Below, piece after piece: positions 16,931 through 33,580 of a stretch of DNA of 64,000 bases. A program made the position numbers and the translations under genes. This DNA comes from Verrucomicrobiia bacterium (GTDB taxonomy: Bacteria > Verrucomicrobiota > Verrucomicrobiia > Limisphaerales > UBA1319). The stretch is from NCBI GenBank assembly GCA_963664225.1, contig OY760937.1, positions 4,224,001-4,288,000 on the forward strand. Direction: 5' to 3'. Positions within the stretch are counted from its first letter, which is position 1. Every line of letters starts with the position of its first letter. The notes below the pieces were generated by a model that was given only the letters and a program-made list of their open reading frames with translations, was not told the DNA's origin and searched no databases.

Positions 16931-17935
16931 TTATTGCGGTAGCGGCGGCCAGGAAATGGGTTCGGCCGTGAACAGTCCCGGAGGCAGGGGAGGCAGGGCG
17001 TTGACCATTTCCCGCCACGATTCGCGATCCGCCGGTGAAAGGGCCTGCCAGCGCTCGACATTCTTTAGAAACTGCTCCTGTTCTGCAGTGGATAAACTCG
17101 CGAGCTTGTTAAAGGATTCGATGCAGTGTTGCCTCTGTTCGCGAGGCAGATTCTTAAACCGCTCCAGCACATTCTGCATTTGACTGCGCTCCTCATTGGA
17201 TAACGCATTCAGAACCTTTTGCTTCTCCTGAGGATTCAACTCAAAAAAACCATCGAATCGGGCATAACGTGTTTGTTGCTGGCGCGGAGTAAGACTCTGC
17301 CAATGGGACAGTTCCTGCTCGACCTGTTTGCGGCGTGCCAGCGGCAATTGGGTGAGCATGGCTTCGCGTTCGGAGCGGGAACTGTTGTCCAGGCGAATGA
17401 GATAGTTGCGGGTGATCTCGTTCTCCAACGCCTCCTTCTGAATCGGCGGCGGCAGCAAATCCCATTGTTCAAGCCGTTCCTCGACGATCTTCCTGTATTC
17501 CGTTGGAATGGCCCTCATCCGCACGGCGCGTTGTTTGGGATCCATGCGCATTAAGGGCACCAGATACCAGCGCAATTCCACCTGGCGCAAACGCATGTCG
17601 CGCAGTTCGGAGGGCATCAATTGATATTCCTCGATTTTGGCGCGCAGAATTTTTCGTTGTGACTCGGGGCGTTTGGCGAGGTTCCTGTCCAGGTCCGTGG
17701 CGTTCATGGACAGCAACTGTCGAAACTGGCTGATGGGAGAAACCAACGTCGTATTCTCCTGCGCGGCAACCGTAGGGACGGCATCGGCCGATTCCAGCGG
17801 CGGTGGAGACTGGGCGTGTCCCGACACCGTGAGAACGACGATGATGAACAGGGACCATGGCATCCAGTATGGGCCGCCGAACCGTCTGCCTGTTGAATTT
17901 GGTATTAACATCGAATGCGCCGTCATCCGCCTCAC
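16931..17935 (-). CDS. DUF3106-like helical periplasmic protein
   Basis: Repeated W/FxxLxPxxR/Q helices, downstream of the ECF sigma / anti-sigma genes. Start uncertain. Confidence 0.7.
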   Translation of the reverse strand: MRRMTAHSMLIPNSTGRRFGGPYWMPWSLFIIVVLTVSGHAQSPPPLESADAVPTVAAQENTTLVSPISQFRQLLSMNATDLDRNLAKRPESQRKILRAKIEEYQLMPSELRDMRLRQVELRWYLVPLMRMDPKQRAVRMRAIPTEYRKIVEERLEQWDLLPPPIQKEALENEITRNYLIRLDNSSRSEREAMLTQLPLARRKQVEQELSHWQSLTPRQQQTRYARFDGFFELNPQEKQKVLNALSNEERSQMQNVLERFKNLPREQRQHCIESFNKLASLSTAEQEQFLKNVERWQALSPADRESWREMVNALPPLPPGLFTAEPISWPPLPQ

Positions 17936-17944
17936 ACGCCCGCG

Positions 17945-18451
17945 CTATTGCAGCGCCGCCAGCAATTCCTCATCGACCGCCACCGGAACTTGCTGCAGGC
18001 GGTAAATAGCCTCGAAATCCTTGAGCACTTCGGGATTGAGCACATTGGATACCCGGCCCATTTCGGCCACACTCCGGGCATATCGCACACGCGAACGATT
18101 CTGGTAAACCTGCATGGATAATCCGATGCACAGCAGGGTGACGCCGACCACCGTTGCGCGCGCCATCCCATGGTATCTCCATGGCCAATCCAACCACTGA
18201 AACAGAGTGCGCGGCTGCCGGGCGGGGCGGGCGTCTTGTTGAATGGCGCAAAGCACCTGATGAGTAAAATTCGAGGATAACGGTTTGGTGGACAATTGCC
18301 GCAAGCAGGCGTTCAGCGCCACATCTTCCGTAAGCGCTTCTTTCAACGCGGGATTACGCTCTATTTCCGCCCGGAGTCGCACCCGCTCCTCGCTGGTGAG
18401 CGGTTGGCGCAAACCGGCTTCGAACCCGGGATTGTTATCTGAATTTTGCAT
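17945..18451 (-). CDS. Putative single-TM anti-sigma factor
   Basis: Directly follows the ECF sigma gene. Cytoplasmic N-terminus ending LSSNFTHQVL, then one TM helix. Confidence 0.65.
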   Translation of the reverse strand: MQNSDNNPGFEAGLRQPLTSEERVRLRAEIERNPALKEALTEDVALNACLRQLSTKPLSSNFTHQVLCAIQQDARPARQPRTLFQWLDWPWRYHGMARATVVGVTLLCIGLSMQVYQNRSRVRYARSVAEMGRVSNVLNPEVLKDFEAIYRLQQVPVAVDEELLAALQ

Positions 18452-18484
18452 CGTGGCCTCTTCCTTTAAAAACCGGTGGGGGGT

Positions 18485-19111
18485 TCAAGTTGCGGTGTCA
18501 TCTTCGATCTCTGATGTCCAGTTTCCAGACCGCAAATACGGCTTGAGCCGTAACTTCATGGTTTCGCGCGCACGGTGAATCAGCGATTTGGTGGCGGAGA
18601 GCGAAGTGCCCATCACCTCGCCGATATCCTCATACGCCATGTCTTTCTCGCGAAACAAAAGCAACGCGGTTCGCTGGGATTCGGGCAGGTCCGCCAAAGC
18701 CTCTTCGATTTTGGCCAGCAACTCCCCTTGTAACAACGCTTCGGCCGGACCTTCGATTCGGGGATCCGGTATCTGGCGAACCGGGGCGTCTTCCTCGCCA
18801 CCAATCTGGGCATCCAGGGAATCGGCGGGATGCCGGGATCGGCGGCGCAGCTCATTGAGGCAGAGATTTCTGGCAATTGTAAAAAGCCAGGTGGAAAATT
18901 TGGCTGAAGCGGCATAGCGGCCCGCCGATTTGTAGGCCTGCACAAAGACGTTTTGCGCAAGATCCTCGGCTTCTGTGGGATCCGAAATGGTCCGGGCCAC
19001 CAGGTTGATGACAGGCTGCTTGTATTTTTCAACCAGGGTCTCAAATGCGGTGATATCTCCGGTTTTCACCCGGAGCATCAGCTCGGCATCTAAATCTGGT
19101 GTGGCGGACAT
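18485..19111 (-). CDS. ECF RNA polymerase sigma factor
   Basis: GDITAFETLV, AEDLAQNVF, FSTWLFTIARN, and region-4 HTH YEDIGEVMG...KSLIHRAR. Confidence 0.95.
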   Translation of the reverse strand: MSATPDLDAELMLRVKTGDITAFETLVEKYKQPVINLVARTISDPTEAEDLAQNVFVQAYKSAGRYAASAKFSTWLFTIARNLCLNELRRRSRHPADSLDAQIGGEEDAPVRQIPDPRIEGPAEALLQGELLAKIEEALADLPESQRTALLLFREKDMAYEDIGEVMGTSLSATKSLIHRARETMKLRLKPYLRSGNWTSEIEDDTAT

Positions 19112-19183
19112 GTGGAGTCCCAGCTTATCAAACACCACTCAATCAATAAGTTGCGCGCGACATCCAACCCTTGAATCGAATTC

Positions 19184-20713
19184 TCAAGGCGTCGCTGCCA
19201 TGACCCGATCACGGTCGATGCCATAGCGCTGCATCACACGCCGGGTCGCCGCCTCCATTTCACCGGCGTCGAGCACGAGTCTGTGAACGGCTTCGCCGGG
19301 AGCGAATTCGACTTCGTGGAAGCCGTTGATCGGTTTGGTCAGGGCATCGGCCAGTTGGCGCAAATTGCTGATGGGCTGGCCATTGACTTTGTCGAGCACC
19401 ATGAACCGGTAATCCTGATAGCCCATGTTGTAGGCATCGGGCAGAACGATGGACAGGAGCACCCGGCTGGGATAGGTGGCGCTGGGCTTGTCCTGGTCAT
19501 AATAGGTCAGACGGAACGGGGCTTTGCGCCGCCATTCCGCTCCCCAGTTATGCAAGTAGGGTCCGGTCAAGGGCTGGAACGTCAGTCCTCCCGCCATGAG
19601 GTATTCCGGGGCCTGATCGAAGACCTGCTCGGCAATCAATTCCCGCGAATAATTGACCTTGGGCAGGGGATAGGTGATGTCTTTGTATTGACCGTTGCGC
19701 CAGACCTTGAGTGACAAATTATCACCCGCCCATTTGTTCCGCGTGGACAGGTTTTCCAGCGATAAGTGGCCATAGGCGGGATCGCTGTAGTCTCCATCGG
19801 TATCGATGGGGAAGTCCCCGATTTGAACCAGGACATCGTGGGTTTGAAGCAGCGCGTTTGTGCCGTCAATGCCCACGAATTCGTTCAGGATCACCCCCTT
19901 GGGTTCGCCCGGGAGTTTCAGGTAATTCAGGGTGGCGGGATTCTCGGCTTTTTGCCACACGAAATCGAAAAAGCCCAGGCCCGCGTAGTTTCCTTTTCCT
20001 TTTTGCGCGCCATCGACGATGAACCGGATGAAAGGGGCGGGGATGACCTGCGTGGTCTTGGAATCCTGAGAGCAGGTCAGACCGTGGAGCATGCCCTCGC
20101 CGATCACCGCCTCGGACCAGCCGGCGCCGTCGATCTCGGAGTCGAGCGAGGCCTGGAAATACTCCAGAAAGCTCAGTTTGGAGCGTTGGACGGAGAGACG
20201 GCTGATTTCTGCCTTGCGGATTTCGCGGTTGCCATTGCGCCAGCGCACCACTTGAACGCTGCCTTCTGCGGGGAACCGGTCCGAAAGCAGGGCGGGCTTC
20301 AAACCATTCCAGAATCCGGCATCCTCGGTCGTGATCAAGGCAAGGTTGGCGTGGTAATCGATCCATTGCAAACGCGCGGTGACCCACAATCCGCGACCCC
20401 CTTTTTGCAGGCGGATGAGCGTCGCATCGTTCAGATATTCGGCCGTGGTGAGAATTTGCCGGGGCGCGATGACCACACCGCTTTTCTCGTTGTTTTCCGT
20501 GCGCACAGCCCACGGCTGAAAATAATCGTATTGCTTGTGAGAAACGTCGATCGTCACCAGCGAGTTTTCCCAAAACGAGGCCGCTCCCGGTCCTGCCGCG
20601 CGGGCCGCGGTGGTATCGGCGCCTGAAACGCCATTTGCGACCAGGCAGAACGTCAGCAGACAAACCGTTCGAAGCGAAGCGGCGGTTTGAATTAAGGTGT
20701 GATGGGCTTTCAT
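19184..20713 (-). CDS. HtrA/Deg-like PDZ protein with degenerate catalytic triad
   Basis: Colinear with the upstream protease (KSGVVI...ILT, GLTFQPL, DKVNGQPI), but triad positions read TTAEYL / HANLAL / GAGWSEA. ATGA overlap with the upstream gene. Confidence 0.8.
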   Translation of the reverse strand: MKAHHTLIQTAASLRTVCLLTFCLVANGVSGADTTAARAAGPGAASFWENSLVTIDVSHKQYDYFQPWAVRTENNEKSGVVIAPRQILTTAEYLNDATLIRLQKGGRGLWVTARLQWIDYHANLALITTEDAGFWNGLKPALLSDRFPAEGSVQVVRWRNGNREIRKAEISRLSVQRSKLSFLEYFQASLDSEIDGAGWSEAVIGEGMLHGLTCSQDSKTTQVIPAPFIRFIVDGAQKGKGNYAGLGFFDFVWQKAENPATLNYLKLPGEPKGVILNEFVGIDGTNALLQTHDVLVQIGDFPIDTDGDYSDPAYGHLSLENLSTRNKWAGDNLSLKVWRNGQYKDITYPLPKVNYSRELIAEQVFDQAPEYLMAGGLTFQPLTGPYLHNWGAEWRRKAPFRLTYYDQDKPSATYPSRVLLSIVLPDAYNMGYQDYRFMVLDKVNGQPISNLRQLADALTKPINGFHEVEFAPGEAVHRLVLDAGEMEAATRRVMQRYGIDRDRVMAATP

Positions 20714-22158
20714 AGTCTGCGGTCCTTGGCAATGCCGTAGGTTTTCAAAATGGACTCGTTGGCCTCTTTGGACTCGGCCCGGTTCAGGCATTCCAGGAGG
20801 CGGAAGGAAACAAACTCGATCACGTCCTGGGCGCCGTTGTCTTTTTCAAACGCGGCAATGACGTCTTCGAGCTTGTTGATGCGCACGCCGTTGATCTTAT
20901 CCACCAGGGCGTGTCCGCGCAGTTCGAGGTTGGCGTTCACAGGATCGGCCAGCACCGCCGCCAGAACGACCGGTTCTGTGCGCGCTGTATCAGGAAACTC
21001 CTGTTTGCGATAATAAAGCTCGTAAATGAGTTCGCTGCCGCTGCCCTCGGGGAAATTTGGGGCGGAGGCGCGCAGATAATCCCGGCTGAGCGGCGTGAAA
21101 ACCAGCCCCGCATGCACATAATAGCGGGGCAGTTCATACAAATTGCCTTCGGCCCGATCATCCGTGGGGACTTTGGCGGTCAGGTTGACGGTCTGAGCGG
21201 CTCCCGCGCGCCAGATTTTCAAAGGCACACTTTCACCCGCCTGCACCTCGCTGAAGGCGCCCGCGACATGAATACGATTGCCTTGATACATGATCGATCC
21301 ATCACTGCCCACGGCATACGGGCCCACTTGCATGAGGACATCGTCTTCCTGCAAAACATCCTTCGCGGGTGAGAACGGGGTGATCTTATCGATGCGCGCG
21401 CCCACGTTATCGTCGGGGATCTTCAGATATTTGCGAAAGGCCGGATTTTGCAGCGGCGACACGCGAACGCCCGCCATCGGGAATCCTTCGTAACGGCCAT
21501 TTTCAATGTCCTTGAGAAAGTGCTGGATCACAGGCGGAGGGATGAAAAAACCGGTGTTCTCCAGGCCGGACATGCCTTGAAAAGATACGCCCGCCACTTT
21601 GTCATCCTGAATCACGGGACCGCCACTGTTGCCCGGGTTGATGGCAGCGTCGGTCTGGACGGCCAGAAAGTTTCGGTTCCCAATATGCACGTAGGTTTGC
21701 AGCTCGATGCGGGAAACCACACCGCGCGTATAGGAGATTTGTTCGCCGCCTGCGGGGTAACCATACGTGACTACCGCAGAACGCACTTTGGCCAGTTCGC
21801 CAATATCCAAAGGCTCGAGTCCGTCAAAAAAAGTTTCGTCCTCGACTTCGAGAATAGACAGGTCGCAGTCATGTCCGATGAACGCCACGCGCGCCAGGTA
21901 GGGCCGGGGATCCTGATATTTATGCACCAGGACTTGTTTGGCCCAACTGACGACGTGGGCGTTGGTCATGATGCGTTTGCCGCGAATCACAAAGCCCGAT
22001 CCGGAGGCTTTGCGCACCGGCTCGAACCGCCACGGGGCGTCCCAGACCGGTTGCTGGCTGAAGGTGGTGATGCGGATGACCGATTTCTCAGGCTCGGCAG
22101 CCGGACTGGCGGCGGCGATGGCCAGCAGGAATAAAATGGAGGCGATGAATGGTCTCAC
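20710..22158 (-). CDS. HtrA/Deg2-like serine protease with PDZ domains
   Basis: GSGFVI, TNAHVV, HDCDL and AAINPGNSGGP. Signal peptide. Confidence 0.95.
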   Translation of the reverse strand: MRPFIASILFLLAIAAASPAAEPEKSVIRITTFSQQPVWDAPWRFEPVRKASGSGFVIRGKRIMTNAHVVSWAKQVLVHKYQDPRPYLARVAFIGHDCDLSILEVEDETFFDGLEPLDIGELAKVRSAVVTYGYPAGGEQISYTRGVVSRIELQTYVHIGNRNFLAVQTDAAINPGNSGGPVIQDDKVAGVSFQGMSGLENTGFFIPPPVIQHFLKDIENGRYEGFPMAGVRVSPLQNPAFRKYLKIPDDNVGARIDKITPFSPAKDVLQEDDVLMQVGPYAVGSDGSIMYQGNRIHVAGAFSEVQAGESVPLKIWRAGAAQTVNLTAKVPTDDRAEGNLYELPRYYVHAGLVFTPLSRDYLRASAPNFPEGSGSELIYELYYRKQEFPDTARTEPVVLAAVLADPVNANLELRGHALVDKINGVRINKLEDVIAAFEKDNGAQDVIEFVSFRLLECLNRAESKEANESILKTYGIAKDRRL

Positions 22159-22367
22159 AAAGCAAAAATGGTAATACGGGCCGTTCGCGTCAAGTCTCGA
22201 TATGATCGGTAAATCCCAAAAATCCGCAGATGGGAATCAAGCCGCGAGTGAATAGGCCCTAGCGCAATAATGCTCAGAAGGCTGGTCGAACAGGGCAGGG
22301 GGATGAAAGCCATAGGCTGTTGACCACGTTTTGCACGCCTTGGCGTGGATTTATTGCGATTCCAGTG

Positions 22368-22547
22368 AAAAAAAAGAAGGCCGGGGATAAATCCGGCCTT
22401 CTTACGGAAATAAAGTAATGAGAACTTACTTTAACACATTGATAACCGCTAAGTTATCTAAAATCGTCTATCAGTGCGGGTGCTGCAGACAGACACCCAA
22501 AAACACACGGTAAAACAAACTCTGCATAACTGCACCGATCAGTTATG
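22368..22547 (-). ncRNA. Candidate sRNA, copy A (~180 nt)
   Basis: Hairpins CAUAACUG/CAGUUAUG, GGGUG/CACCC, GAUAAC/GUUAUC and UAAAGUAA/UUACUUUA, then terminator GAAGGCCGG/CCGGCCUUC + U8. Duplicated. Confidence 0.75.
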
Positions 22548-22552
22548 GGATC

Positions 22553-22598
22553 AGGATACCCGAATTCTGAGTCCCCACCAGTCACCAGTACTGGTGAC
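22553..22598 (-). promoter_or_regulatory. Palindromic operator plus -10 for sRNA copy A
   Basis: Perfect palindrome GTCACCAGTACTGGTGAC at 22581-22598, 22-bp spacer, TATCCT (minus strand, 22558-22553). Confidence 0.7.
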
Positions 22599-22629
22599 AC
22601 GCCGTCCCCAGTGTAACCATCCTGGTAAT

Positions 22630-23256
22630 TTACTGCTTCAGGAACTTGGCGACGGCTTCGGTGCGGGTGCGGACCTGCAGTTTCTCGTAAATGCGGCGGA
22701 TGTAGGTGTGAACGGTTTCGTAGCTGATGCCGAGTTTCTCGGCGATTTCCTTGTAGAGAAAACCCTTCGCCAGGCAGTCCAGGACTTCCTGTTCGCGCGT
22801 GGACAGGTTCTCGGAGGGCTGCGGCGAGGAGCCGATTCGCTGGAAGGATTGCACGACCTTGCGGGCGATGTGTGTGGTCATGGGGGATCCGCCTTTTTGA
22901 ACTTCCTTGATTCCCGCAAGCAATTCCGGGGTTGTCGTTCGCTTGAGCAGATAGCCCGAGGCCCCGGCGGTCAGGGCGTTGAAGATGTTCTCGGTATCTT
23001 CATACACGGTGAGCATGAGGATCTGGATTTGCGGGGCCACCTGTTTCAACTTCTTCACGCATTCCACGCCGTTCATGCCCGGGAGGTTGATGTCCATGAG
23101 GACGACATCGGGTTTCACACGCGGCAGCTCATCGAGCGCGGCCTCGGCATTGGCATACTGGTGGGTGCATTGGAAGCCCTCGGAGCGATCGATCACCTTG
23201 GCGAGGGTGGTGCGCACCAGATTGCTATCTTCCACAATGGCAACTTGAATTGGCAT
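22630..23256 (-). CDS. NarL/FixJ-family response regulator (REC + LuxR HTH)
   Basis: VAIVED, DVVLMDINLPGMNG, GASGYLLK, LSTREQEVL...YKEIAEKLGIS. Confidence 0.97.
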   Translation of the reverse strand: MPIQVAIVEDSNLVRTTLAKVIDRSEGFQCTHQYANAEAALDELPRVKPDVVLMDINLPGMNGVECVKKLKQVAPQIQILMLTVYEDTENIFNALTAGASGYLLKRTTTPELLAGIKEVQKGGSPMTTHIARKVVQSFQRIGSSPQPSENLSTREQEVLDCLAKGFLYKEIAEKLGISYETVHTYIRRIYEKLQVRTRTEAVAKFLKQ

Positions 23257-23391
23257 TTCCTATCGACAACCCTGACAGAAAAAAAGACCCCGTGCCAGCC
23301 CAATCGTTCAGCCGTGCGCACGACAAAAATCTTTTGATGCCCACCGCCCTCCGCTCTTTGCCCTCTGCCTTTTTCAATCTTCCGTGCGTAC

Positions 23392-23572
23392 AAAAAAAAA
23401 GAAGGCCGGGGATAAATCCGGCCTTTTTACGGAAATAAAGTAATGAGAACTTACTTTAACACATCGATAACCACCAAGTTATCTAAAATCGTCGATCAGT
23501 GCGGGTGCTGCAGACATACACCCTAAAATCACACGGTAAACAAACTCTGCATAACTGCACCGATCAGTTATG
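23392..23572 (-). ncRNA. Candidate sRNA, copy B (~180 nt)
   Basis: Same stems as copy A, with differences mainly in loops and linkers. Terminator with U9. Confidence 0.75.
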
Positions 23573-23577
23573 GGATC

Positions 23578-23623
23578 AAGATAGCGGTTTCTGGATTCCC
23601 CACCAGTCACCAGTACTGGTGAC
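23578..23623 (-). promoter_or_regulatory. Palindromic operator plus -10 for sRNA copy B
   Basis: Identical palindrome at 23606-23623, the same 22-bp spacing, TATCTT (minus strand, 23583-23578). Confidence 0.7.
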
Positions 23624-23731
23624 ACGGTGTGCCCGGTGTCCCCAATGCCTGCAATGACCCGTCGAAAATAAATGTCCCGGGCGTTGGTTTTGGGCTTGAG
23701 TAAATCCGTTCGGGCCGTCACAACGTTTCTT

Positions 23732-25138
23732 ATGAACCGTCGAAAGTTTTTACAGCGCACCGCGCTTGCCGCAGGCGGATTGTCCGTTCTGCCGGAATTT
23801 TACATCTCAAACCTTCACGCCGCAGACAAAGGGAAGCTGAACATCGTTCAGATCGGCTGCGGTGGACGCGCCATGACCCATCTGGATGCCACAGTGGACG
23901 AAAACCTGGTGGCCATTGTGGATGTCTCGGAAAAGCGTTTTCCGGTGATCCAGAAATGGCTGACCAATAAGAACAAGGACGCCGCAAAGCTGCAGACGTT
24001 CACGGACTACCGGCGGATGTTCGACAAGATGGGCAAGAATGTCGATGCGGTGTTCATTGCCACGCCCAATCATCATCACGCGCTGCCCGCCATGACGGCC
24101 ATGCAGCTGAACAAGGCCGTTTATTGCGAGAAGCCGGTCTGCCACGATATTGGCGAGGCGCGGCAACTGCGTGAGATGGCCACCCATTCCAAGGCGGCCA
24201 CGCAGATGGGCAACCAGGGGCATTGCGACGAGGGTTACCGCCGGTTGTGCGAATACATCTGGTCCGGCGCCATCGGCGCGGTCACGGAAACCCATAGCTG
24301 GACCAATCGCGCCAACGGCGGCGTGGGACCGCGTCCCCCCGTGGAACCAGTGCCCGAGGGAATGCATTGGGACGAATACATTGGGCCCGCTCCCTATCGT
24401 GATTTCCATTCCGACATTCATCCCCACGAATGGCACGGCTGGTATGATTTCGGGAATGGATCCATCGGCAACATGGGTTGCCATGTCCTGGACGGCGTCT
24501 TTTGGGCGCTGAAAATCGAGCATCCCACCTCCATTGTGGCCGAGGCCATCCGCGGCGGCAGCAACGAACGCTACCCCACCGGCAGCCGCATCCGCTGGGA
24601 TGTTCCCGCCCGTGAAGGCATGCCTGCGTTGAAAGTGTTTTGGTACGAGGGCTTGAACCAGACGACCAAGGCCGAACCGTCCGGCGCATTGCGCATTGCC
24701 GTGGGCGAGGCCCGGAATCTGCCTCCGCTGTTGGGCGAGCTGCGAAAGAAGTATCCCGATGAAGAGATCGACAGCGCGGACAGCGGCACTCTTTACGTGG
24801 GCGAAAAAGGCACGATCTATACCGAGACCTATGGCGGCTACATGCACATCGTTCCCTGGGAAAAGATGAAGGCCACACCCGCGCCGGAAAAGACCCTGCC
24901 ACGCTTCAAAGGCGGCATTTTCCGGAATTTCCTGGAGGCCTGCCGCACGGGCAGCAGGGATACGGCCGTGCCCTTCGAATATGGCACGCGGCTGACCGAG
25001 TTCGCCGTTCTGGGCAACCTGGCCCAACACGCTGGCGAAGGCAACAAGGTGGAATGGGATGGCCCGAACATGAAGGTCAAAAACATTCCCGAGCTCAACG
25101 CCTGGATCAAGCGCGAGCCGCGCAAAGGCTGGGCGTGA
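23732..25138 (+). CDS. Gfo/Idh/MocA family oxidoreductase, Tat-exported
   Basis: MNRRKFL twin-arginine signal, IGCGGRA, ATPNHHH, VYCEKP, QMGNQG and GNMGCH. Confidence 0.95.
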   Translation: MNRRKFLQRTALAAGGLSVLPEFYISNLHAADKGKLNIVQIGCGGRAMTHLDATVDENLVAIVDVSEKRFPVIQKWLTNKNKDAAKLQTFTDYRRMFDKMGKNVDAVFIATPNHHHALPAMTAMQLNKAVYCEKPVCHDIGEARQLREMATHSKAATQMGNQGHCDEGYRRLCEYIWSGAIGAVTETHSWTNRANGGVGPRPPVEPVPEGMHWDEYIGPAPYRDFHSDIHPHEWHGWYDFGNGSIGNMGCHVLDGVFWALKIEHPTSIVAEAIRGGSNERYPTGSRIRWDVPAREGMPALKVFWYEGLNQTTKAEPSGALRIAVGEARNLPPLLGELRKKYPDEEIDSADSGTLYVGEKGTIYTETYGGYMHIVPWEKMKATPAPEKTLPRFKGGIFRNFLEACRTGSRDTAVPFEYGTRLTEFAVLGNLAQHAGEGNKVEWDGPNMKVKNIPELNAWIKREPRKGWA

Positions 25139-26408
25139 GGAAGAGCGGACGGTCCTTGCGCTTCGGATAAATTGAAGAAGAGGCGCGAGCGCGAGTTGGG
25201 AGTGGCGGCTATTTTCGAAGGGAGGGGACAATTTGTCCCCTTCTTGGAATTTGATTTCGATGAAGCGGGGGGCGGCAGAAATTTCAATGCCGAAGTACAG
25301 CATTGGCTTTATCCGACTCATTTATCCCTTCTCCACCCGCAACAAACTCACATGCGAATGGGAAATTTGTTAGTAATTAAACAGATTGGAACAGTTAACG
25401 TTAATCCATGATCACCGAAATCCATCTCCAGAATTTCCGCGGATTCAAGGACCACGTTGTTCCTCTCAAGCCTTTTACGGTGATTGTCGGGCGTAACAAC
25501 GCTGGAAAATCGACTATCACTGAGGCGCTCCGTTTAATTTCTATTGTCGTAAGTCGTTTCAAAGGAGATTTGACGAGCCTTCCTCGAAAGTGGGAATTTC
25601 CTCGGAATAGGCGCAGCATAAATCAATTTAAGAATCTGGAGATCAATTTACAGAGTGTTTTTCATAACTACAGCGACCCTCCTGCAATTGTCCGAGCCAA
25701 GTTTGCATCTGGCGAAATCATTGAGGTGGCGATTACGAACGATGGGATTATTGCGCGCAGGACTCGAGTGAATAGCGTGCGGGAGGATTGTTGTCCTAGA
25801 TTGTCGAGAGTAAGTATTTTGCCGCAAGTCGGACCCGTTGCAAGGGAAGAACGGTTGCTCACTGAAGACTATGTGCGTGGAGCGTTATCATCAACCTTGG
25901 CGCCGATGCACTTTCGGAATCAACTTTACCTGCTAAAAGAGCAGTTTCAGACTTTTAAAGACTCAGCTGAGCAGACTTGGCCTGGACTGCGAATCCGTGA
26001 CTTGGAAACGATCGAACAGCTTCCTGACCCCACTCTGCTGTCCTTATTAGTAGAAGATCAACACTTTACGGCCGAGATCGCATGGATGGGACACGGACTT
26101 CAGATGTGGCTTCAGATGATTTGGTTTCTGAGTCGCGCAATTGACCATGAAACGGTGATTCTTGACGAACCAGATGTATACATGCACGCAGATTTGCAGC
26201 GGCGATTTGTGCGGTTTGTGCGCAGCCGTCACCAGCAAGTAATCATTGCAACGCATTCATCGGAAATAATGGCCGAGGTTCTTCCTGATGATATTCTTGT
26301 TGTTGATCGCGCCAGGGAGAAATCCGACTTCGCATCTTCACTGCCAGCTGTTCAAAAGTATCCGTCAGGCGAAGTGGCTATAGGCAATGGCCGGGCTGAA
26401 GTGGTTAA

Positions 26409-26756
26409 ATGGGGGGCGTGAAGCACCGAACTGCATCCTCAAATCGATTTCCGCAAACCACATGTGAACAACGTGCCCAATGGATCCTTCGCTATCACCA
26501 GAGTGGATTGACGCGGCGCGCCTTTGCTTCTGAGTATGGCATCGGATTGTCCACATTGGGGAGGTGGCTCAGAGACCCGGTGCCCACCGCCGTGGAACCA
26601 CCCGCACTGCCACGCCTGCAGGAAGTCCCTCTGGCTTCCCTGCTGGGAAATTCGCCTTGGGCTGCGGAAATCACCTTTGCCGACGGGACCGCGGTGCGCC
26701 TGACTGGGGACCTGGCCGACCGACTTTTGCAACCCTGGCTTGGGGCGCGTTCATGA
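26409..26756 (+). CDS. tnpA: IS66 accessory protein TnpA (HTH)
   Basis: SGLTRRAFASEYGIGLSTLGRW HTH, EITFADG, first ORF inside the IRs. Confidence 0.85.
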   Translation: MGGVKHRTASSNRFPQTTCEQRAQWILRYHQSGLTRRAFASEYGIGLSTLGRWLRDPVPTAVEPPALPRLQEVPLASLLGNSPWAAEITFADGTAVRLTGDLADRLLQPWLGARS

Positions 26757-27088
26757 TCACGCCCACTGCCGCCACACGTATCTTCGTTGCCCTGGCTCCG
26801 ATGGACTTGCGCCAGTCCTTTAACGGGCTGTGTGCCTGGGTCCAGGAGTCCTTGCGTCAGGATCCTCTCTCGGGCCATCTTTTTTTGTTCACCAACAAAC
26901 ACCGGAACCGTCTCAAGGCCCTTTACTGGGACGGCAGCGGACTTTGGGTCAGCACAAAACGTTTGGAGCGGGGTCGATTTACCTGGCCACAAGGGGAGGG
27001 ATTGCAGGCAAACTTGCGCGCCGAGGAACTCAGCGCGTTAGTCAACGGATTGGAGATCCGCGCACGCAAAGACTGGCGGCGAAACTGA
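26753..27088 (+). CDS. tnpB: IS66 accessory protein TnpB
   Basis: DLRQSFNGL, LFLFTNK, KALYWDGSG and KRLERGRFTWP. ATGA overlap with tnpA. Confidence 0.93.
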   Translation: MITPTAATRIFVALAPMDLRQSFNGLCAWVQESLRQDPLSGHLFLFTNKHRNRLKALYWDGSGLWVSTKRLERGRFTWPQGEGLQANLRAEELSALVNGLEIRARKDWRRN

Positions 27089-27154
27089 AAGATTCTTAAA
27101 ATAAATTGCGTATAACTATTGACATAATAATTTATATTGTTATGAGTAATAACA

Positions 27155-28804
27155 ATGAATCCAGCACCGTCACTGACTCCCGAACTTCTGGCTCAGATGC
27201 CCGAGTCCTTCCGCGGTGTCGTCCTCCAGGCCGTTGGTCAGCTCGAAAGTCAGGTGCAGTCTCTGTCCAGCGAGAACAAGCTCCTGCGCCAGAAAATCGA
27301 TGCCCTGATCCGCCAGTATTTTGGTTCACCCAAAAACGAGACCCTCGATCCCAACCAACTGCTTCTGCTCTTGAGCGGACTGGCAGGAACCTCCGCCCCG
27401 GTTGCGGCCACCCCGGTCCAATCCGCCCCGGCTTCCAAAGCCACGACAAATCGCAAACCGGCCCGTTCGGGGATTCCGGAGAATCTGCCCATTGAAAAGG
27501 TGGTGCTGCTGCCCGACGAGGTGAAAGCCAACCCGGACCAGTTCCGCCAGATTGACCAGCTGATCACACGGGAATTGGACTATGAGCCGGGCCGGTTTTT
27601 CTGGAGGGAAATTACGCGGCCAAAGTTTGTGCGTCGGACTGCGGCGGCCCCGGCCCCCGAAATTTCGCTCACGACACCGGAAGGCAAGCTGCCGCCGCTG
27701 GCGTTGGCCCTGGCAATGACCTCGTTGCCCGAGGTCAGGGAGGTTCTGATCGCGGAGCTGCCCAACCGGCTGATCGAAAAAGGACTGCCGGGAGTGGGCT
27801 TGCTGGTCCACTTGATTTTGAGCCGCTTTGAAGATCATCTGCCCTTTTACCGGCTGGAAAAGATCTTCCGGGAACGACACAGGGTGCCCATCGCCCGGCA
27901 GACAATGGTCGATTGGACCGAACGCCTGGCCGATTGGTTCCTGCCGGTCTATCGCGAGATGGCCGCTGGACTGCGCGCCGCCAAATATCTTCAAGCCGAC
28001 GAGACCCCCATTCAATATCTGGACCGGGAAGTGCCCGGGCGCAGTTGCACGGGATACTTCTGGGTGTATGGCCAGCCAGGCGGAGATGTGATTTTCGAGT
28101 GGAAGACCAGCCGGGGCCGGGAAGGACCCAAGGCGTTTCTGGAGACTTTCAAGGGCAAGCTCCAATGCGATGGCTATGGCGTCTATCAATCTTTGGCTAG
28201 GGAACGGGAGGATTGGACCCTGATCGGTTGCTGGGCCCATTGCCGGCGATATTTCCATAAGGCCAAGGATCATGACCGGCACGCGGCCTGGTTTTTGAAG
28301 CAAATCAGCCTGCTCTATGAGATTGAACGACGTCTGAGCCAGCAGAAGGCCGGGCCCAACCTGCGGGAAGCCGTGCGGGCTGCGGAGGCCAAGCCCGTGC
28401 TCGCGCGCATTGGAAGGGCGCTGGAGAAAATCGAGCCCAAGATTTTGCCCCAAAGCCTTCTGGGCAAGGCCATCCATTATGCCAGGGGTTTGTGGACAGA
28501 GTTGAATCAATATGCCCAGTTCGGGGAGGTGGCGATTGATAATAATCCGATCGAGAACATAATTCGGCCCACGGCCATTGGGAAAAAGAACTTCCTGTTC
28601 ATTGGCCATCCCGAGGCGGGCTGGCGAAGCGCCGTGATCTACTCGATCCTGGGCAGTTGTCATCGCCATAAAATCAATCCGGCCCTCTATTTGCGTGATG
28701 TGCTCAGCCGCCTCCCCAACATGCAGCAAAGTGAGGTGCCAACCATTACCCCAAAAGCCTGGGCCAAGGCACATCCCGAAGCGCTCGCACAGTTGCCCAA
28801 GTAA
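27155..28804 (+). CDS. tnpC: IS66 DDE transposase TnpC
   Basis: HLPFYR, ADETP, QCDGY, CWAHCRR, IDNNPIENIIRP and GKKNFLF. Confidence 0.96.
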   Translation: MNPAPSLTPELLAQMPESFRGVVLQAVGQLESQVQSLSSENKLLRQKIDALIRQYFGSPKNETLDPNQLLLLLSGLAGTSAPVAATPVQSAPASKATTNRKPARSGIPENLPIEKVVLLPDEVKANPDQFRQIDQLITRELDYEPGRFFWREITRPKFVRRTAAAPAPEISLTTPEGKLPPLALALAMTSLPEVREVLIAELPNRLIEKGLPGVGLLVHLILSRFEDHLPFYRLEKIFRERHRVPIARQTMVDWTERLADWFLPVYREMAAGLRAAKYLQADETPIQYLDREVPGRSCTGYFWVYGQPGGDVIFEWKTSRGREGPKAFLETFKGKLQCDGYGVYQSLAREREDWTLIGCWAHCRRYFHKAKDHDRHAAWFLKQISLLYEIERRLSQQKAGPNLREAVRAAEAKPVLARIGRALEKIEPKILPQSLLGKAIHYARGLWTELNQYAQFGEVAIDNNPIENIIRPTAIGKKNFLFIGHPEAGWRSAVIYSILGSCHRHKINPALYLRDVLSRLPNMQQSEVPTITPKAWAKAHPEALAQLPK

Positions 28805-29821
28805 CCGATGCCTTGTTGCGGGTGACTTCTGAAAGTTGCCATATTCGCCTTTCACGCCGCCAATCTAATCAGGCCAGCCCCACATTGCCTATTGCCACTT
28901 CGCCTGACGGATACGTTCAAAAAGTCCTAAGCGGACTTGGAAGTATACATAATTTGCAGCTTTCGCGCCTTTGGAATGCTCGTCGGTTTCTCATGGTCGA
29001 GGGGGAAGATGTGGGCTTGCTGAAGCAATTCCAAGATACACTCTTCCCAGAAACAACAATTCCTCTTGATACTGTTCCATCGATAACAATTGGAGGTTGG
29101 GGAGGTTGGAATCAAGCGGTGGGTTCAGGATTCCTATTGAAGAACGCTGCCGGCGACGGAATAATAACCTACTGCTTATTCGATTCGGACTACCATCCAT
29201 CGGATGCAATTCAAGCACGCTACACTGAAGCGAAACACCGCGGTATATCTTTGTATATATGGAAGCAAAAGGAACTAGAAAACTACTTGCTTGTGCCGAG
29301 CGCAATACATCGTGCGATATGGGTCCAGCTAGCTGATGGAGCACTTGGGCCGACCGTCGAGATGATTGAAACAAAACTACAGGAAATCGCAGAAAACATG
29401 AAGCAAGATGTGATTGACTGCGTGGCAACAGATATTCAGAACGCGGAAAGGAAGATCTCGGTAGCTACTGCCAATCAAAAAGCGCGTGAAGTCACTGCCA
29501 ATCGATGGCGCACCGCAGAAGAACGTCTCGGCGTTATACCAGGAAAACGGGCTCTATCTCTTATTACGCATTGGGTTCAGGATGAATACAAAGTGACTAT
29601 AAGCGGTATGCGCATTGCTCACCAAATGCTTGCGAGCGAATTGCATTTAGAAATAAAACGTGTCCTCACAGCGATTGAAGAGTGTGAACCTTTTTAGTGG
29701 CGAGAGCGCACCTGCGCGGAACAGGGTCCCACGGATTGCTTTGGATTGGATCTAGAATTCACAGACGGGCGGCGACAGCAACTCCAATCTTTTCGCTGGC
29801 CGATGGATAGTCAGTTTGTGA

Positions 29822-30145
29822 CGCCCCTACAGGGCTTTTGGTGTTGTTGGCGACGGTTTACCTGGGCCTCCGCTCGCGGACTCGCTCCAGCCCAGGCTGC
29901 TTTGGGGTCGCGCCGTTGGCGCTGACATAGGGATTATATTGGTGCGGTCGGTGGGGTCGATTGCCATAAACATGTCGCCCCGCTGGGGCTTTGACTTGGA
30001 TGGGGGCTTGGGTGCTATAAACATGTCGCGCCTCCGGCGCTTCGGATGGGTGATTTAGAGATGAACGCACGCAATAAAGTTCCTGAGGAGCGCAATGTTT
30101 ATAGAAATAGCCAATCACTCAATCCAAGCTCCAGCGGAGCGGCAT
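29822..30145. repeat. Cluster of REP-like short palindromes
   Basis: ATAAACATGTCGCCCCGCTGGGGCT (29966), ATAAACATGTCGCGCCTCCGGCGCT (30017), inverted units at 30078-30104 and 30127-30145, and related hairpins at 29822 and 29909. Confidence 0.75.
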
Positions 30146-30270
30146 ACTCCCCGATTCTGCGCTCTGGGGTGTTGGCGCATTCCCATCCCAATTAAAACAT
30201 CACTTCCCAATCCTGCGCATCCTGTCCATCCATGTAAGAACTCTTTTATTCCCGCCTGTCACCTCACGCC

Positions 30271-33200
30271 TCACCCCTTCGCGTCCACCGGGGTGGGGGC
30301 GCTGGCGCGGACGAGGGTGCCGCCGGAGGCTCCGGGCTGGATGGAGAATTTGCCGCCGATGGCATCCATCCTCTTGCGCATGCCACTGAGGCCATTGCGG
30401 GTGAGGGCCGCCTTTTCGTCCATGCCGCCCAGGCCGCAGCCGTCGTCCTCGATCTCCATGATGAACATGCCGGACTCCAGGCGCAGGCGCAGGGACACCT
30501 TCGTGGCTTTGGAGTGACGCACCACGTTGGTGATCGATTCCTTGAACGTGAGGAAATAATTATGTCGGTATTCGGGCGGAATGGTTATGGCGGGCAATTG
30601 ATCGGGAACGTCGAGCCGGCAATGAATGCCCGCCACGGAGAGGTAATCCTGGGCGTGTTTGCAGATGTAATTCACCAGGCCCTCCAGTGTGTCGTTCGAG
30701 GGGTTCACGGCCCAGACGATCTCGTCCAGGACGCGCGTGGTTTCGCGGGCGGTTTGTGAAATCTGCCGGGCATGCGCCTCCACTTCGAGCGGATGGTCCT
30801 TGTCGCACTCGGCCAGATCGCCCAGCAGGGCCACTTGAGTGAGATTGGCGCCGAGCTGGTCGTGAAGGTCCTGGGCAATGCGCGAGCGCTCTTTTTCCAG
30901 GGCCTCATGTTGCTTCAGTCGCTCGAGCTGGCGCTGCAATTTTTGGGTGGAGACGTAATGTACGATGCCAATGATGCTGCCGAGCAGGACGACGGTGGCG
31001 CCGCCCAGGAACCACCAGGTGCGCCAGAAGGGCGGGGTGACCTGCAGCATCAGGGAGCTTCCGGTGTCGTTCCAGACGCCGTCCTCGTTGCAGGCGGTGA
31101 CTTGAAAACGGAACTGGCCGGGCGGCAGTTTGCTGTAACGCGCCACATGGCTGTCTCCCGCCTCGGTCCATTCGGTTTCGTGGTTTTCCAGGCGGTATTT
31201 GAAGCGGCTTCTTTCGGGCGCGGTGAGGTTCAGACTGGTGAAATGGATTTCAATGCGTTCCTTCCCGGGGGGAACAATCACGGTTTCGGTTGATCCAGCA
31301 GTCAACCCAGCGTTCAACCCAGCGTTCAACCGGTTGGTGTTTTGGAGTTGGCCGTCGATCAGGACCGATTCGATGACGACGGGCGGGGGATAGGGGTTGG
31401 AGATGAGCTGGGCGGGATTGACCGAGACCAGGCCCTTGGTCGTTGGGAGCCAGACCCTTCCGTCGCGTCCGAGCCAGCCGCCCGGTTGGGAGCCGGTGGT
31501 GCATTCGCGCGTGGGCAGGCCATCCGGCTTCCCATATGTGCGGCAAAAGACAACACCCGAGCCGCCCCGGGCCAGGGCGTCCAGTTCGCGCCGGGCCACC
31601 CTCATGATGCCCGCATTCGAGCCCAGCCACAGAAAGCCGTGGCGATCCTCCACAATGTAGCCTATGCTGTTGCTGGCCAGGCCTTCACGCGTGGTGTAGC
31701 GGGTCCATTTGCCCTTCTCCAGACGGCCCAAACCGCCGCTGGGTCCGCCCACCCAGACGATCCCCTGGGCATCGACGAGCAGGGTGGTGACGTCCTCACT
31801 GGGCAGACCGTCCTTCTTGTGAAACACCGTGAAGTGGTTATCACGCAGGCAGTTCAATCCGCCGCCCACGGTGCCCACCCAGAGATTGCCCTCGGCGTCA
31901 TCGCCAATGGCGCGCACCTCATTCGCCGACAAACCCTCGTTCGTGGTCAGGACTTTCCAAGTCGTTCCATCCCAGCACGCCAGACCGCCCTGCGTGCCAA
32001 ACCACATCCGGCCCTGGCGATCCTGGTGAATGGCGCTGACGACCTTTTGAATGGCGGGCGGCCCATCGATGCGTTGGAAGCGGCCATCCAGCAGGCGATA
32101 CAAACCGCCGCCCCATGTGCCGGCCCAAACCTGTTTTTCGCGATTCACATACACCGACCAGACATACGCGCTGGTCAGACCCTGGTTTGCGCCAAAGCGT
32201 TCCAGGGCATTCTGTTTCCAATAAGCCAAGCCGCCGCCGTTGGAGCCGATCCACACGCCCCCATCGTCATCCTCGCAGGTGGATTGCACCGCGCCGCCGG
32301 TGGTGTTCAGCGCCACATCCACGACCTCGAAAATCTTGCGCTTCACGCGGTTCAGCCCGCCGCCGTCCGTGCCCACCCAGAGCGTATTCTCGCGATCCAC
32401 ACTCAGCGACAGGACCACATCATGCGAAAGGCCCTGACTGGTGTTGATCCACGACGCCTTGCCCTCATCATCAAACCAGTACACGCCCACGCCCAGGGTC
32501 CCGACCACCAGGTGGCCATTGCGGTCCTCGCACGCGGCGGAAACGGGTGCGCGGCCCCAGGGATAAGGCCCCAGGTCGCGTTCCATGCCGTTGGTTGACC
32601 AGAGCTGAACGTGTTGGTCCGCCAGCCGCCAATAACCGCCATTCGTGCGGGAACTGGCCACCAGATAATCCACTTTTTGCACGGGTTCCTCCCGGGCGAC
32701 AGGCAGTTCCAGCGTGCCGGAGGGCAGGGGTTGTTTCACCGCGCACAACCTCCAGTCCACGCCGATCCAGACCTGACCGGTGCGTTCGCAAATGATCGAG
32801 CGGCAGTTGCTCGGGCGGTTCTGGCCGACTAAAAGAACATCGAAACGGCCTGCGGCATAGCGCCAGAGCTGGCCATCCGCCGTGTAAAGCCACACCCCGC
32901 CCGTGGTGTCCTCGCAGGCGGACATGAGGCGCGACTCGGAGCCGCCCTGGCCCACTCCGGGCGAGAAGACCAGGCCGTCCTTGATGCGCTGGATGCCCGC
33001 AGACTCGGTTCCCACCCAAAGACCGCCCGTGGAGTCCTCGAAAATTTTGACGATGCGGCCACTGTTCAATCCGGGGGTGTTGCTTTCATCGAAAATCGAG
33101 AAGCGCTGGCCGTCGAAGCGCACCAAGCCGTTGAGCGTGCCCAGCCATAGATAGCCATCGCGCGCCTGAATAATGGAGGTGACCGAGTTTTGCGGCAGGC

Positions 33201-33402
33201 CGTCGTCGGTCGTCCAATTGTCGATGATGTAGGGGCTGTTGGCCCTCAGGCCCGTCGTGGAGGCCGCCTGCAGATGGGAGGCGCTCAGGCTGGCCAGAAG
33301 CCATAGCGCAATCAGAACACAGAAGCCGCGAAATGCCTGAATCAAAACTCCACGGGATTCCGCAGCGTGGGAATTGCAGTTTTTAGACAGGCGCTTAGGC
33401 AT
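30271..33402 (-). CDS. Sensor histidine kinase: Reg_prop beta-propellers + Y_Y_Y + TM + HisKA_3 + HATPase
   Basis: Repeated DxxGxLWxGT, YSKLPPGQFRF, PPFWRTWWF, ERSRIAQDLHD, ESITNVVRHS and DDGCG. Confidence 0.95.
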   Translation of the reverse strand: MPKRLSKNCNSHAAESRGVLIQAFRGFCVLIALWLLASLSASHLQAASTTGLRANSPYIIDNWTTDDGLPQNSVTSIIQARDGYLWLGTLNGLVRFDGQRFSIFDESNTPGLNSGRIVKIFEDSTGGLWVGTESAGIQRIKDGLVFSPGVGQGGSESRLMSACEDTTGGVWLYTADGQLWRYAAGRFDVLLVGQNRPSNCRSIICERTGQVWIGVDWRLCAVKQPLPSGTLELPVAREEPVQKVDYLVASSRTNGGYWRLADQHVQLWSTNGMERDLGPYPWGRAPVSAACEDRNGHLVVGTLGVGVYWFDDEGKASWINTSQGLSHDVVLSLSVDRENTLWVGTDGGGLNRVKRKIFEVVDVALNTTGGAVQSTCEDDDGGVWIGSNGGGLAYWKQNALERFGANQGLTSAYVWSVYVNREKQVWAGTWGGGLYRLLDGRFQRIDGPPAIQKVVSAIHQDRQGRMWFGTQGGLACWDGTTWKVLTTNEGLSANEVRAIGDDAEGNLWVGTVGGGLNCLRDNHFTVFHKKDGLPSEDVTTLLVDAQGIVWVGGPSGGLGRLEKGKWTRYTTREGLASNSIGYIVEDRHGFLWLGSNAGIMRVARRELDALARGGSGVVFCRTYGKPDGLPTRECTTGSQPGGWLGRDGRVWLPTTKGLVSVNPAQLISNPYPPPVVIESVLIDGQLQNTNRLNAGLNAGLTAGSTETVIVPPGKERIEIHFTSLNLTAPERSRFKYRLENHETEWTEAGDSHVARYSKLPPGQFRFQVTACNEDGVWNDTGSSLMLQVTPPFWRTWWFLGGATVVLLGSIIGIVHYVSTQKLQRQLERLKQHEALEKERSRIAQDLHDQLGANLTQVALLGDLAECDKDHPLEVEAHARQISQTARETTRVLDEIVWAVNPSNDTLEGLVNYICKHAQDYLSVAGIHCRLDVPDQLPAITIPPEYRHNYFLTFKESITNVVRHSKATKVSLRLRLESGMFIMEIEDDGCGLGGMDEKAALTRNGLSGMRKRMDAIGGKFSIQPGASGGTLVRASAPTPVDAKG

Positions 33403-33580
33403 GAAGCATTTTTCCCGCGTCACGGTGACGGTGTAAAGGTATTTATTGGGGGATGAAGGGGCGGGCCGTGTACAGCTATTCGCGAAAAAATGCCGTAGGA
33501 TGGATCTGGCAATTTCACTTTTCCAAAACGGATTGGTCCTCCAGAATGGGCACGGCCGTGCATTACACGCAAACAAATCG

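Follow-up and report, generated by a model that had tools for sequence, protein, structure and literature searches.

The 64,000 nucleotides analysed here (the window; positions 4,224,001 to 4,288,000 of contig OY760937.1, from a Verrucomicrobiia bacterium) contain two direct repeats of ~250 bp each, at 22368-22618 and 23393-23643, which bracket the gene for a response regulator (RR) with REC and GerE domains (22630-23256, minus strand). The repeats are spaced 1025 nt apart and their sense strand is the minus strand. In each, a 22-nt spacer separates the palindrome GTCACCAGTACTGGTGAC from a -10 box, behind which come ~180 nt of RNA-like sequence and then a GC-rich hairpin followed by a U-run; we treat the two units as candidate genes for small RNAs (sRNAs). 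A first-pass annotation, made from the letters alone, had described a ~230-bp unit occurring twice in the same orientation around the regulator, and both a repeat search and a pairwise alignment of the copies recover it. The search returned one block of 95% identity (22368-22503/23393-23528) and one of 86% (22513-22619/23538-23644); in the alignment, similarity extends from ~20 nt upstream of the palindrome to the U-run.

The operator-like palindrome of copy 1 is an exact match at 22581..22598, 31 nt past the RR stop codon. It is followed by a predicted promoter (22553..22580, minus strand) whose 22-nt spacer begins TGGTGGGGA and leads, without a -35 consensus, to the -10 box TATCCT (22558-22553). 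The putative sRNA (22368..22546, minus strand, ~179 nt) would start near 22546, a position predicted from the -10 box, and its U-run ends at 22368. In copy 2 the palindrome (23606..23623) lies between the RNA gene and a divergent oxidoreductase gene (23672-25138, plus strand). The promoter (23578..23605, minus strand) again has a 22-nt spacer, here with the -10 box TATCTT (23583-23578), and the second putative sRNA (23392..23571, minus strand, ~180 nt) carries CCGUGUG at 23536-23530, GUUCUCA at 23450-23444 and a terminator at 23425-23402 with a U-run to 23392. The RR start codon follows 136 nt downstream of copy 2 on the same strand.

The sequence GTCACCAGTACTGGTGAC is a perfect 18-bp palindrome, and no further site resembling it at up to 3 mismatches was found elsewhere in the 64 kb (0/100 shuffles gave matches). 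Palindrome, spacer length and the TATC(C/T)T boxes are as first annotated, and so is the non-random divergence between the copies: the palindrome differs at 0/18 positions, the spacer at 8/22 and the flank after the U-run at 20/28, and in the RNA part 15/179 MAFFT columns differ, which by eye come down to 8 substitutions and two offsetting 1-nt indels (spacer vs RNA, Fisher p ~0.001). Both RNA parts fold better than shuffled sequences (z -5.0 for copy 1 and -4.4 for copy 2; 0/200 shuffles equally good), and a terminator scan picks up the terminators of both copies. As the repeat, the palindrome, the divergence pattern, the fold z-scores and the terminators all hold up, the observation behind the first-pass annotation was correct. 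One detail needs amending. The two indels, a 1-nt deletion and a 1-nt insertion ~9 nt apart, flank CCGUGUG (22500-22520, 23525-23545), and because they offset each other the overall length and a 25-codon GTG frame are kept in both copies. An ATG open reading frame (ORF) is indeed truncated in copy 2, but it is not the only small ORF, as had been stated, since the GTG frame is open in both.

Occurrence of the operator-promoter module

We scanned the exact 18-mer in 185,579 species genomes (596 Gb) and found 82 sites, whose loci are cited here by handle (L010 and the like). On one side of 70 of the 82 lies the same module of operator, spacer, TAnnnT box, RNA and terminator, always on Verrucomicrobia-type contigs. 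These 70 comprise 69 sites from scripted classification plus L010, which was added by nhmmer (E 3.5e-20), and they fall in ~41 assemblies, a hand count from contig prefixes made without L081 and L082. Assemblies carry 2 to 6 sites, several of them 3 to 6. The other 12 sites, on contigs labelled Actinomycetes, Saccharibacteria, an archaeon and others, are without the module architecture; by our own arithmetic, ~9 matches to a palindromic 18-mer would be expected by chance in 596 Gb. In three Saccharibacteria contigs (L029, L051, L076) the exact 18-mer sits inside an otherwise conserved stretch containing GGATCACCTCCTTT, which resembles the 3' end of 16S rRNA, and the palindrome there is an unrelated conserved occurrence.

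The geometry of the module is nearly fixed. When the two window copies are added to the 70 sites, the spacer from palindrome to TAnnnT box is exactly 22 nt in 66/72 and 23 nt in 4/72, and 66-67/72 sites have T23, A24 and T28 in the box. A TGGCGGG-like sequence lies directly 3' of the palindrome (T1 in 70/72, G3 in 58/72, C4 in 57/72), and the operator can be generalised to the pattern GTCACCAG-N2-CTGGTGAC, 22-23 nt from TAnnnT. With the start taken ~7 nt past the box, the palindrome centre lies ~43 bp upstream of the predicted start and thus over the -35 position; no sigma-70 -35/-10 consensus promoter was found in 22100-23800. Since the palindrome overlaps the -35 position and no consensus -35/-10 pair is present, the sequence suggests a promoter that needs an activator.

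A search of ~440 kb of flanking DNA at up to 3 mismatches yielded three further sites, GTAACCAGTACTGGTGAC once and GTCACCAGAACTGGTGAC twice, each of which precedes another RNA of the family. Within the DNA examined, the operator stands solely in front of family RNAs. With both window copies as queries, blastn hits in the 82 loci were confined to the palindrome and at most ~25 flanking nt; homology of the RNA body is apparent by inspection and by profile only. In an nhmmer search with the family profile, in which the window copies were themselves included, copy 1 scored E 5.8e-17 and copy 2 E 3e-17.

Several further features of these loci were noted. In sRNA orientation, the palindrome is preceded by TGGGGAC(A) elements in the window (22604-22610 and 23637-23644) and at L002, L004, L010, L047 and L067, with two elements each in L002 and L004 and one per window copy. 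In sequence these elements are close to the half-site TGGTGAC as well as to TGGCGGGGA 3' of the palindrome, and they may be extra, weaker half-sites. On the palindrome side opposite the sRNA, another conserved box, CGGGATTATATAnTTnGCAAACGCAGAT, begins at a distance of ~8-13 nt in many loci (L012, L014, the 3377 site of L015, L019, L024, L028, L030, L037, L042, L055, L057, L062, L063, L064, L069 and L073, and also L022 near 834). It looks like a divergent promoter plus leader and is missing from the window copies. The divergent genes at L012, L014, L037, L055 and L057 encode mutually related proteins of 286-330 aa, four of the five matching Pfam Proteasome (PF00227).

Sibling sRNA pairs 0.5-3.2 kb apart were seen at L015 (633/3377), L060 (1863/4789), L018 (4001/5146), L074 (3464/4001) and L022 (834/4001); the recurrence of such close pairs in other genomes indicates that local duplication is common in the sRNA family. 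Finally, seven assemblies titled Saccharimonadales, Acidoferrum, Binatia, Bifidobacteriaceae, Limnocylindria, Baltobacteraceae and Limnocylindrales carry the module (L015/L016, L017, L018, L026, L031, L039-L041, L048, L058, L063-L065, L068, L070). Because the operator-sRNA module they contain is verrucomicrobial, these are probably mislabelled or mixed bins.

Sequence and structure of the RNA family

Measured from the predicted start, the RNAs are 63 to 182 nt long and fall, by inspection, into short (~63-78 nt), intermediate (~89-100 nt) and long forms (~115-182 nt), the window copies being the longest. Nearly all members have two motifs, CGUGUGUG and (U)GUUCUCA, and all end in a terminator of the form GGCCGGRC-loop-GYCCGGCC plus U-run, recognised by pattern in 65/71 and by eye in 6. 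This count rests on a loosened pattern, because many sites escaped a more demanding one (5 or more T and a strict hairpin). The window copies carry CGUGUGUG, GUUCUCA and the GGCCGG...CCGGCC terminator; in copy 1 these correspond to CCGUGUGU at 22510-22503, GUUCUCA at 22425-22419 in a hairpin loop, and the terminator at 22403-22374 with its U-run. In 18 short forms (alignment A4) a 7-bp hairpin with compensatory changes holds an invariant GUUCUC in its loop, and is followed by single-stranded GUGUGA and the terminator.

For the long forms we aligned 42 sequences (alignment A2), leaving out L036, L043 and L046, which have a different 5' domain, and L010. Neither alignment includes the class C forms, the L039 variant or the 1-mismatch extra copies (L018, L022, L074); profile searches relied on nhmmer in place of a covariance model. 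RNAalifold predicts on this alignment the helices P1b and P2 and the terminator. To this set we added P4 (GGCGU with GCGCC), which crosses P2. Over the resulting 24 pairs and 42 sequences, 93.1% of cells are paired, as against 35-52% when the partners are slid by 1-3 columns; counting sequences as independent, both sides have changed in 15/24 pairs, and 0/500 shuffles reach any of the observed measures. The window copies form P1b, P2 and P4 (in copy 1, 22536-22532 with 22477-22473, 22526-22522 with 22488-22484, and 22497-22493 with 22483-22479, respectively), with a U-A pair in P4 at a position that is C-G in most members. In 34/42 folds of the isolated segment, every base of the GUGUG motif is unpaired. 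A local hairpin capping the GU motif (P3) was tried as a family feature and dropped, since it forms in only ~12/42 long forms.

The window RNAs have a 5' extension of ~5 nt that is unseen elsewhere in the family and a loop GUUA instead of AAAA, and the extension can form an 8-bp hairpin of CAUAACUG with CAGUUAUG (22523-22548, 23548-23573) that would compete with P1b/P2. The single-sequence fold of copy 1 preferred this hairpin, and a lineage-specific alternative fold of the window RNAs is possible from such modelling. The first-pass annotation, which had drawn four hairpins and a GC terminator, was right about the terminator, found by the scan in both copies, and not about its first hairpin, CAUAACUG/CAGUUAUG, which is not the conserved fold; in relatives this segment pairs over long range. 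Its GAUAAC...GUUAUC hairpin is likewise present in both window copies but is no family feature, being absent from the other 40 of the 42 aligned long forms. Its broader reading, that the units are sibling sRNAs, is supported by the shared module at 70 of the 82 exact palindrome sites and by the compensatory changes in the helices.

The family has the layout expected of trans-acting base-pairing sRNAs: computationally, its members have their own promoter and terminator and no conserved ORF. Neither small frame of the window (ATG or 25-codon GTG) is conserved in relatives. Encoded small proteins were considered and rejected, as the longest ORFs, of 11 to 46 codons, vary in both start and frame, and the frame in which the conserved GCGGCGCC block is read changes between members. 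Past the terminator, the next long ORF is co-oriented in 29/66 cases and convergent in 37/66 (crude ORF calling); the genes on the operator side include those for kinases, dehydrogenases and transporters and share no theme.

The RNAs match no described family, in agreement with the annotator's failure to recognise them. Rfam 15 gave 0 matches in the window at the gathering threshold; at E<=10, the region 22200-23800 gave 13 matches, all far under their gathering thresholds (best 24.1 bits vs 100), and 16 related loci gave two tRNAs only. A search of the literature outside subscription-only papers returned nothing on the sRNA family or the palindrome. Also as first noted, the repeated GGA loops of CsrB/Rsm RNAs are missing: GGA occurs once per window RNA, within the terminator stem. 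Judged by these comparisons of sequence, the sRNA family is real, conserved and undescribed.

The response regulator, its probable kinase and their neighbourhood

The RR is a NarL/FixJ-type protein of 208 aa (Pfam Response_reg 2.5e-27, GerE 3.5e-18), whose closest solved structures are VraR, DevR and NarL. It reaches none of the NCBIfam equivalog cut-offs (MctR, 144 of 300; UvrY/SirA/GacA, 125.6 bits of 280). More than 120 homologs share 76-83% identity with it, the named ones being Verrucomicrobia. The phospho-acceptor D55, T83, K105 and the helix-turn-helix (HTH; Y179-L206) are invariant in 26/26 aligned orthologs, and the invariance of the HTH fits that of the palindrome across the same group.

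A link to two-component signalling, which the first-pass annotation had proposed, finds its support in conserved synteny only. By tblastn, five other species have a full-length RR ortholog of 71-80% identity at a module locus (L001, L003, L004, L007, L008), and in 5/5 of these it ends 33-143 nt before the palindrome on the strand of the RNA, the same arrangement as in window copy 1. Directly upstream of the RR ortholog at L001, L003, L007 and L008 lies a kinase gene (52-54% identity over ~990 aa) orthologous to the probable cognate sensor kinase of the window (30271..33576, minus strand, 1101 aa), in which Pfam identifies Reg_prop beta-propeller repeats, Y_Y_Y, HisKA_3 and HATPase_c. The L004 contig ends just upstream of the RR gene. 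Because four relatives keep the kinase directly upstream of the RR, the ancestral order appears to be kinase, regulator, palindrome, RNA.

In the window, kinase and RR are separated by ~7 kb (23644-30270). Pfam assigns in this interval a Gfo/Idh/MocA-type oxidoreductase gene with a twin-arginine (TAT)-signal-like sequence (23672-25138, plus strand), an AAA_15/AAA_21 ATPase gene (25408-26421) and an IS66 transposase gene (27155-28804); an ORF at 28813-29697 has no family assignment. sRNA copy 2 sits at the end of this stretch that is nearest the regulator, and may therefore have arisen together with the rearrangement that separated kinase and RR.

Two PDZ_3 proteins, an ECF sigma factor and a DUF3106 protein are encoded downstream of copy 1 (16931-22158), along with a 168-aa ORF; one of the PDZ_3 proteins is a DegP/HtrA-like serine protease. 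A homolog of the protease (31% identity) follows the RR-adjacent sRNA in L004 (2842-3366), and a homolog of the sigma factor (37%) follows that in L007 (4423-4938), which hints at a loosely conserved envelope-stress neighbourhood.

Interpretation and relation to known systems

We regard it as very likely that the units are regulated sRNA genes. The fuller account that we favour, in which they are independent genes for trans-acting sibling sRNAs activated by the RR in Verrucomicrobia of the Pedosphaera/Limisphaerales type, seems to us probable, though well short of secure. The adjacent regulator is reasonably likely to be the factor at the palindrome, and base pairing, rather than protein titration, has about an even chance of being the mode of action. 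Most likely, the sRNA family would serve as the chief output of a two-component system conserved in Verrucomicrobia.

Under this account, the phosphorylated NarL-type RR would bind the 18-bp palindrome as a dimer and, with the palindrome over the -35 position, activate a promoter lacking a -35 element in a class II-like manner. Its ancestral partner would be the beta-propeller/Y_Y_Y/HisKA_3 kinase at 30271-33576. Transcription would start ~7 nt past the TAnnnT box, and the RNA would be released at the conserved intrinsic terminator. Its exposed CGUGUGUG and/or GUUCUCA could then act as seeds that pair with C/A-rich and GAGAAC-containing mRNA sites; these family-wide unpaired motifs take the place of the U-rich linker that had been suggested at first as the pairing seed. 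Read-through from copy 2 could possibly feed RR expression in this genome, as a local add-on, given that the RR gene is not preceded by a consensus promoter.

A bolder version, which we put forward tentatively, is that the two-component system signals almost exclusively via 2 to 6 or more sibling sRNAs per genome, the short forms being bare seed modules and the 5' domain of the long forms a second functional part. This domain, possibly pseudoknotted through P1b/P2/P4 on an almost invariant CUGCGGCGCCGC strand, might serve, as part of the same tentative version, as a protein- or ligand-binding element or as a switch gating the GU-rich seed.

A number of points weigh against the favoured account. 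What computation shows directly is the repeat, the conserved module, the synteny and the helices together with their compensatory changes; transcription, the palindrome-binding protein, activation as opposed to repression, base pairing and targets are all things that we infer from them. The -10 boxes of the window copies (TATCCT and TATCTT) are weak. Among the compensatory changes, those shared by related sequences may be single events, and as P2 and P4 cross and cannot both be nested, they would represent either a pseudoknot or alternative folds. Searches for targets gave no signal: in 503 kb, complements of the motifs (6 heptamers) showed no enrichment over permutations matched for composition at -45..+20 of 1290 crudely called ORF starts, a test of low power, and RNAduplex of the two window seed regions against the initiation regions of 37 window ORFs, again of low power, gave a best value of -19.8 kcal/mol vs a shuffled-seed mean best of -21.5. 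(An RNAduplex match of -25.8 was discarded; it came from a spurious antisense ORF overlapping the RNA gene itself.) Finally, the RR lies beside the module in only 6 of ~42 genomes (the window and 5 others), the scan being silent on RR position elsewhere, and at L059 a different NarL-family paralog (27% identity) is found near the site.

The last two points bear on whether another transcription factor binds the palindrome, with the RNA family and the operator real and the adjacency to the RR due to co-inheritance or to an action of the RNA on the two-component system. The paralog near the L059 site makes a regulator other than the adjacent RR conceivable, and the palindrome lies downstream of the RR gene, unlike a classical autoregulatory site. 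The order kinase-RR-palindrome-RNA nevertheless recurs where the RR is only 71-80% identical, the RR HTH is as invariant (26/26) as the site, and an 18-bp inverted repeat fits a GerE-type HTH dimer; we consider a different factor fairly unlikely. It is also conceivable that the RNAs, still under RR control, are decoys for an RNA-binding protein that recognises GUUCUCA and/or GU repeats. Nearly all operator sites drive sRNAs, as reported for GacA and the Rsm RNAs (PMC2375449). The missing signal of complementary targets and the conserved structured 5' domain of the long forms would suit a decoy as well. Such RNAs are known to carry many copies of their motif, however, in contrast to the one copy of each per RNA here, and the short form of 63-78 nt resembles a typical base-pairing sRNA made of seed plus terminator, so that titration appears unlikely.

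Were the units instead cis-acting leaders or attenuators, copy 2 would serve the RR gene and copy 1 the DegP-like protease gene. Co-oriented genes do follow both window copies, with the RR start 136 nt and the protease start ~210 nt past the U-runs, and copy 2 read-through could feed an RR that has no consensus promoter. Across the family, by contrast, the next long ORF is more often convergent (37/66) than co-oriented (29/66), the operator-side neighbours that we checked come from unrelated families, and strong terminators are universal; read-through into the RR cannot be the function of the family, and we hold a leader role to be highly improbable. Practically no credence is left for a mobile or selfish dispersed element of the kind of miniature inverted-repeat transposable elements (MITEs) or repetitive extragenic palindromic (REP) sequences, or for an assembly artefact, without RNA function. 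The family is multi-copy, and an IS66 transposase gene is nearby in the window. Yet only 2 copies occur in 64 kb (palindrome search and two nhmmer profiles), the repeat search found no terminal inverted repeats bounding the unit, the window copies differ in a selection-like pattern, and orthologous copies elsewhere keep their helices via compensatory changes. At 86-95% identity the copies are also not identical, which speaks against an assembly in which they were collapsed or duplicated. The first-pass annotation had listed, among the findings that would refute it, a dispersed MITE without linkage to this regulator; the family is dispersed, with 2 to 6 sites per assembly, but behaves as conserved genes and not as a mobile repeat.

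Genes for RR-activated sibling sRNAs would be of interest in several respects. In Rfam 15 and in the literature outside subscription-only papers we found no characterised regulatory sRNA system in Verrucomicrobia; if the two-component system does signal almost exclusively through the sRNAs, the phylum would gain its first defined sRNA regulon, with an RNA architecture that has no known counterpart. The candidate kinase, the candidate regulator, the exact 18-bp operator and the fixed promoter geometry make up a testable circuit for bacteria that are abundant in soil, peat and freshwater. The ~41 assemblies contribute at least 73 genes for such RNAs, together with two candidate seed motifs, and the invariant operator means that the regulon can easily be enumerated in any genome or metagenome. 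Beta-propeller/Y_Y_Y sensors detect glycans in the hybrid two-component systems of Bacteroides. By analogy, the sensor type of the kinase gives a hint, though no more, of a connection with the use of polysaccharides that is characteristic of the phylum.

In logic and in the anatomy of the genes, the csRNAs of the streptococcal CiaRH system come closest, as both have a regulator site, a -10 box, a short RNA, a terminator and sibling copies. For the csRNAs, the regulator site lies directly upstream of the -10 box of an intergenic gene for a short RNA with a terminator, several siblings occur per genome, and the family was inventoried by a search for binding site plus terminator; the CiaR site is the direct repeat TTTAAG-N5-TTTAAG (PMC8186281). 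The units described here have the inverted repeat GTCACCAGTACTGGTGAC in place of that direct repeat and a NarL/GerE-type candidate regulator, their RNAs have no relation to csRNAs in sequence or structure, and the phylum differs. CiaR is an OmpR-type regulator.

The GacS/GacA (UvrY, LetA) systems, with RsmX/Y/Z or CsrB/C, share with our proposal a NarL-family regulator that has sRNA genes as its main direct output. They too have a palindromic upstream sequence before redundant sRNA genes (PMC2375449). The differences are nonetheless clear: the RR, at 125.6 bits, stays under the UvrY/SirA/GacA equivalog cut-off of 280, and the window RNAs have their one GGA in the terminator stem, compared with the many GGA loops of CsrB/Rsm RNAs. 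The GacA box lies far upstream, whereas the palindrome here abuts the -10 region and differs from the GacA box in sequence. In LuxO-Qrr of Vibrio and GlrKR-GlmY of enterobacteria, too, a two-component system acts through multi-copy or paired sRNAs, one of which is encoded next to the regulator genes. The regulators of Qrr and GlmY are NtrC-type and act at sigma-54 promoters; the RR described here, in contrast to that of Qrr, consists of REC and GerE only, without AAA+, and its candidate promoters have a TAnnnT box and no -24/-12 element.

For the promoter, the nearest parallel is LuxR, where a dimer of the GerE/LuxR-type HTH takes the place of the -35 element by binding an inverted repeat whose centre is ~42 bp upstream of the start. 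The palindrome centre here is similarly placed ~43 bp upstream of the predicted start, at a fixed 22 nt from the -10 box. LuxR itself is activated by a ligand, not by phosphorylation, and its target is an mRNA operon. For the RNA, GcvB offers a comparison, in that an unpaired G/U-rich stretch pairs with C/A-rich mRNA sites; CGUGUGUG is likewise nearly invariant and mostly unpaired, but there is no Rfam match to GcvB. Altogether, the type of system is already known, and the sRNA family, the phylum and the 5' domain of the long forms are new; the locus would thus add an independent example of a recurrent design, that of a two-component system acting through redundant sRNAs.

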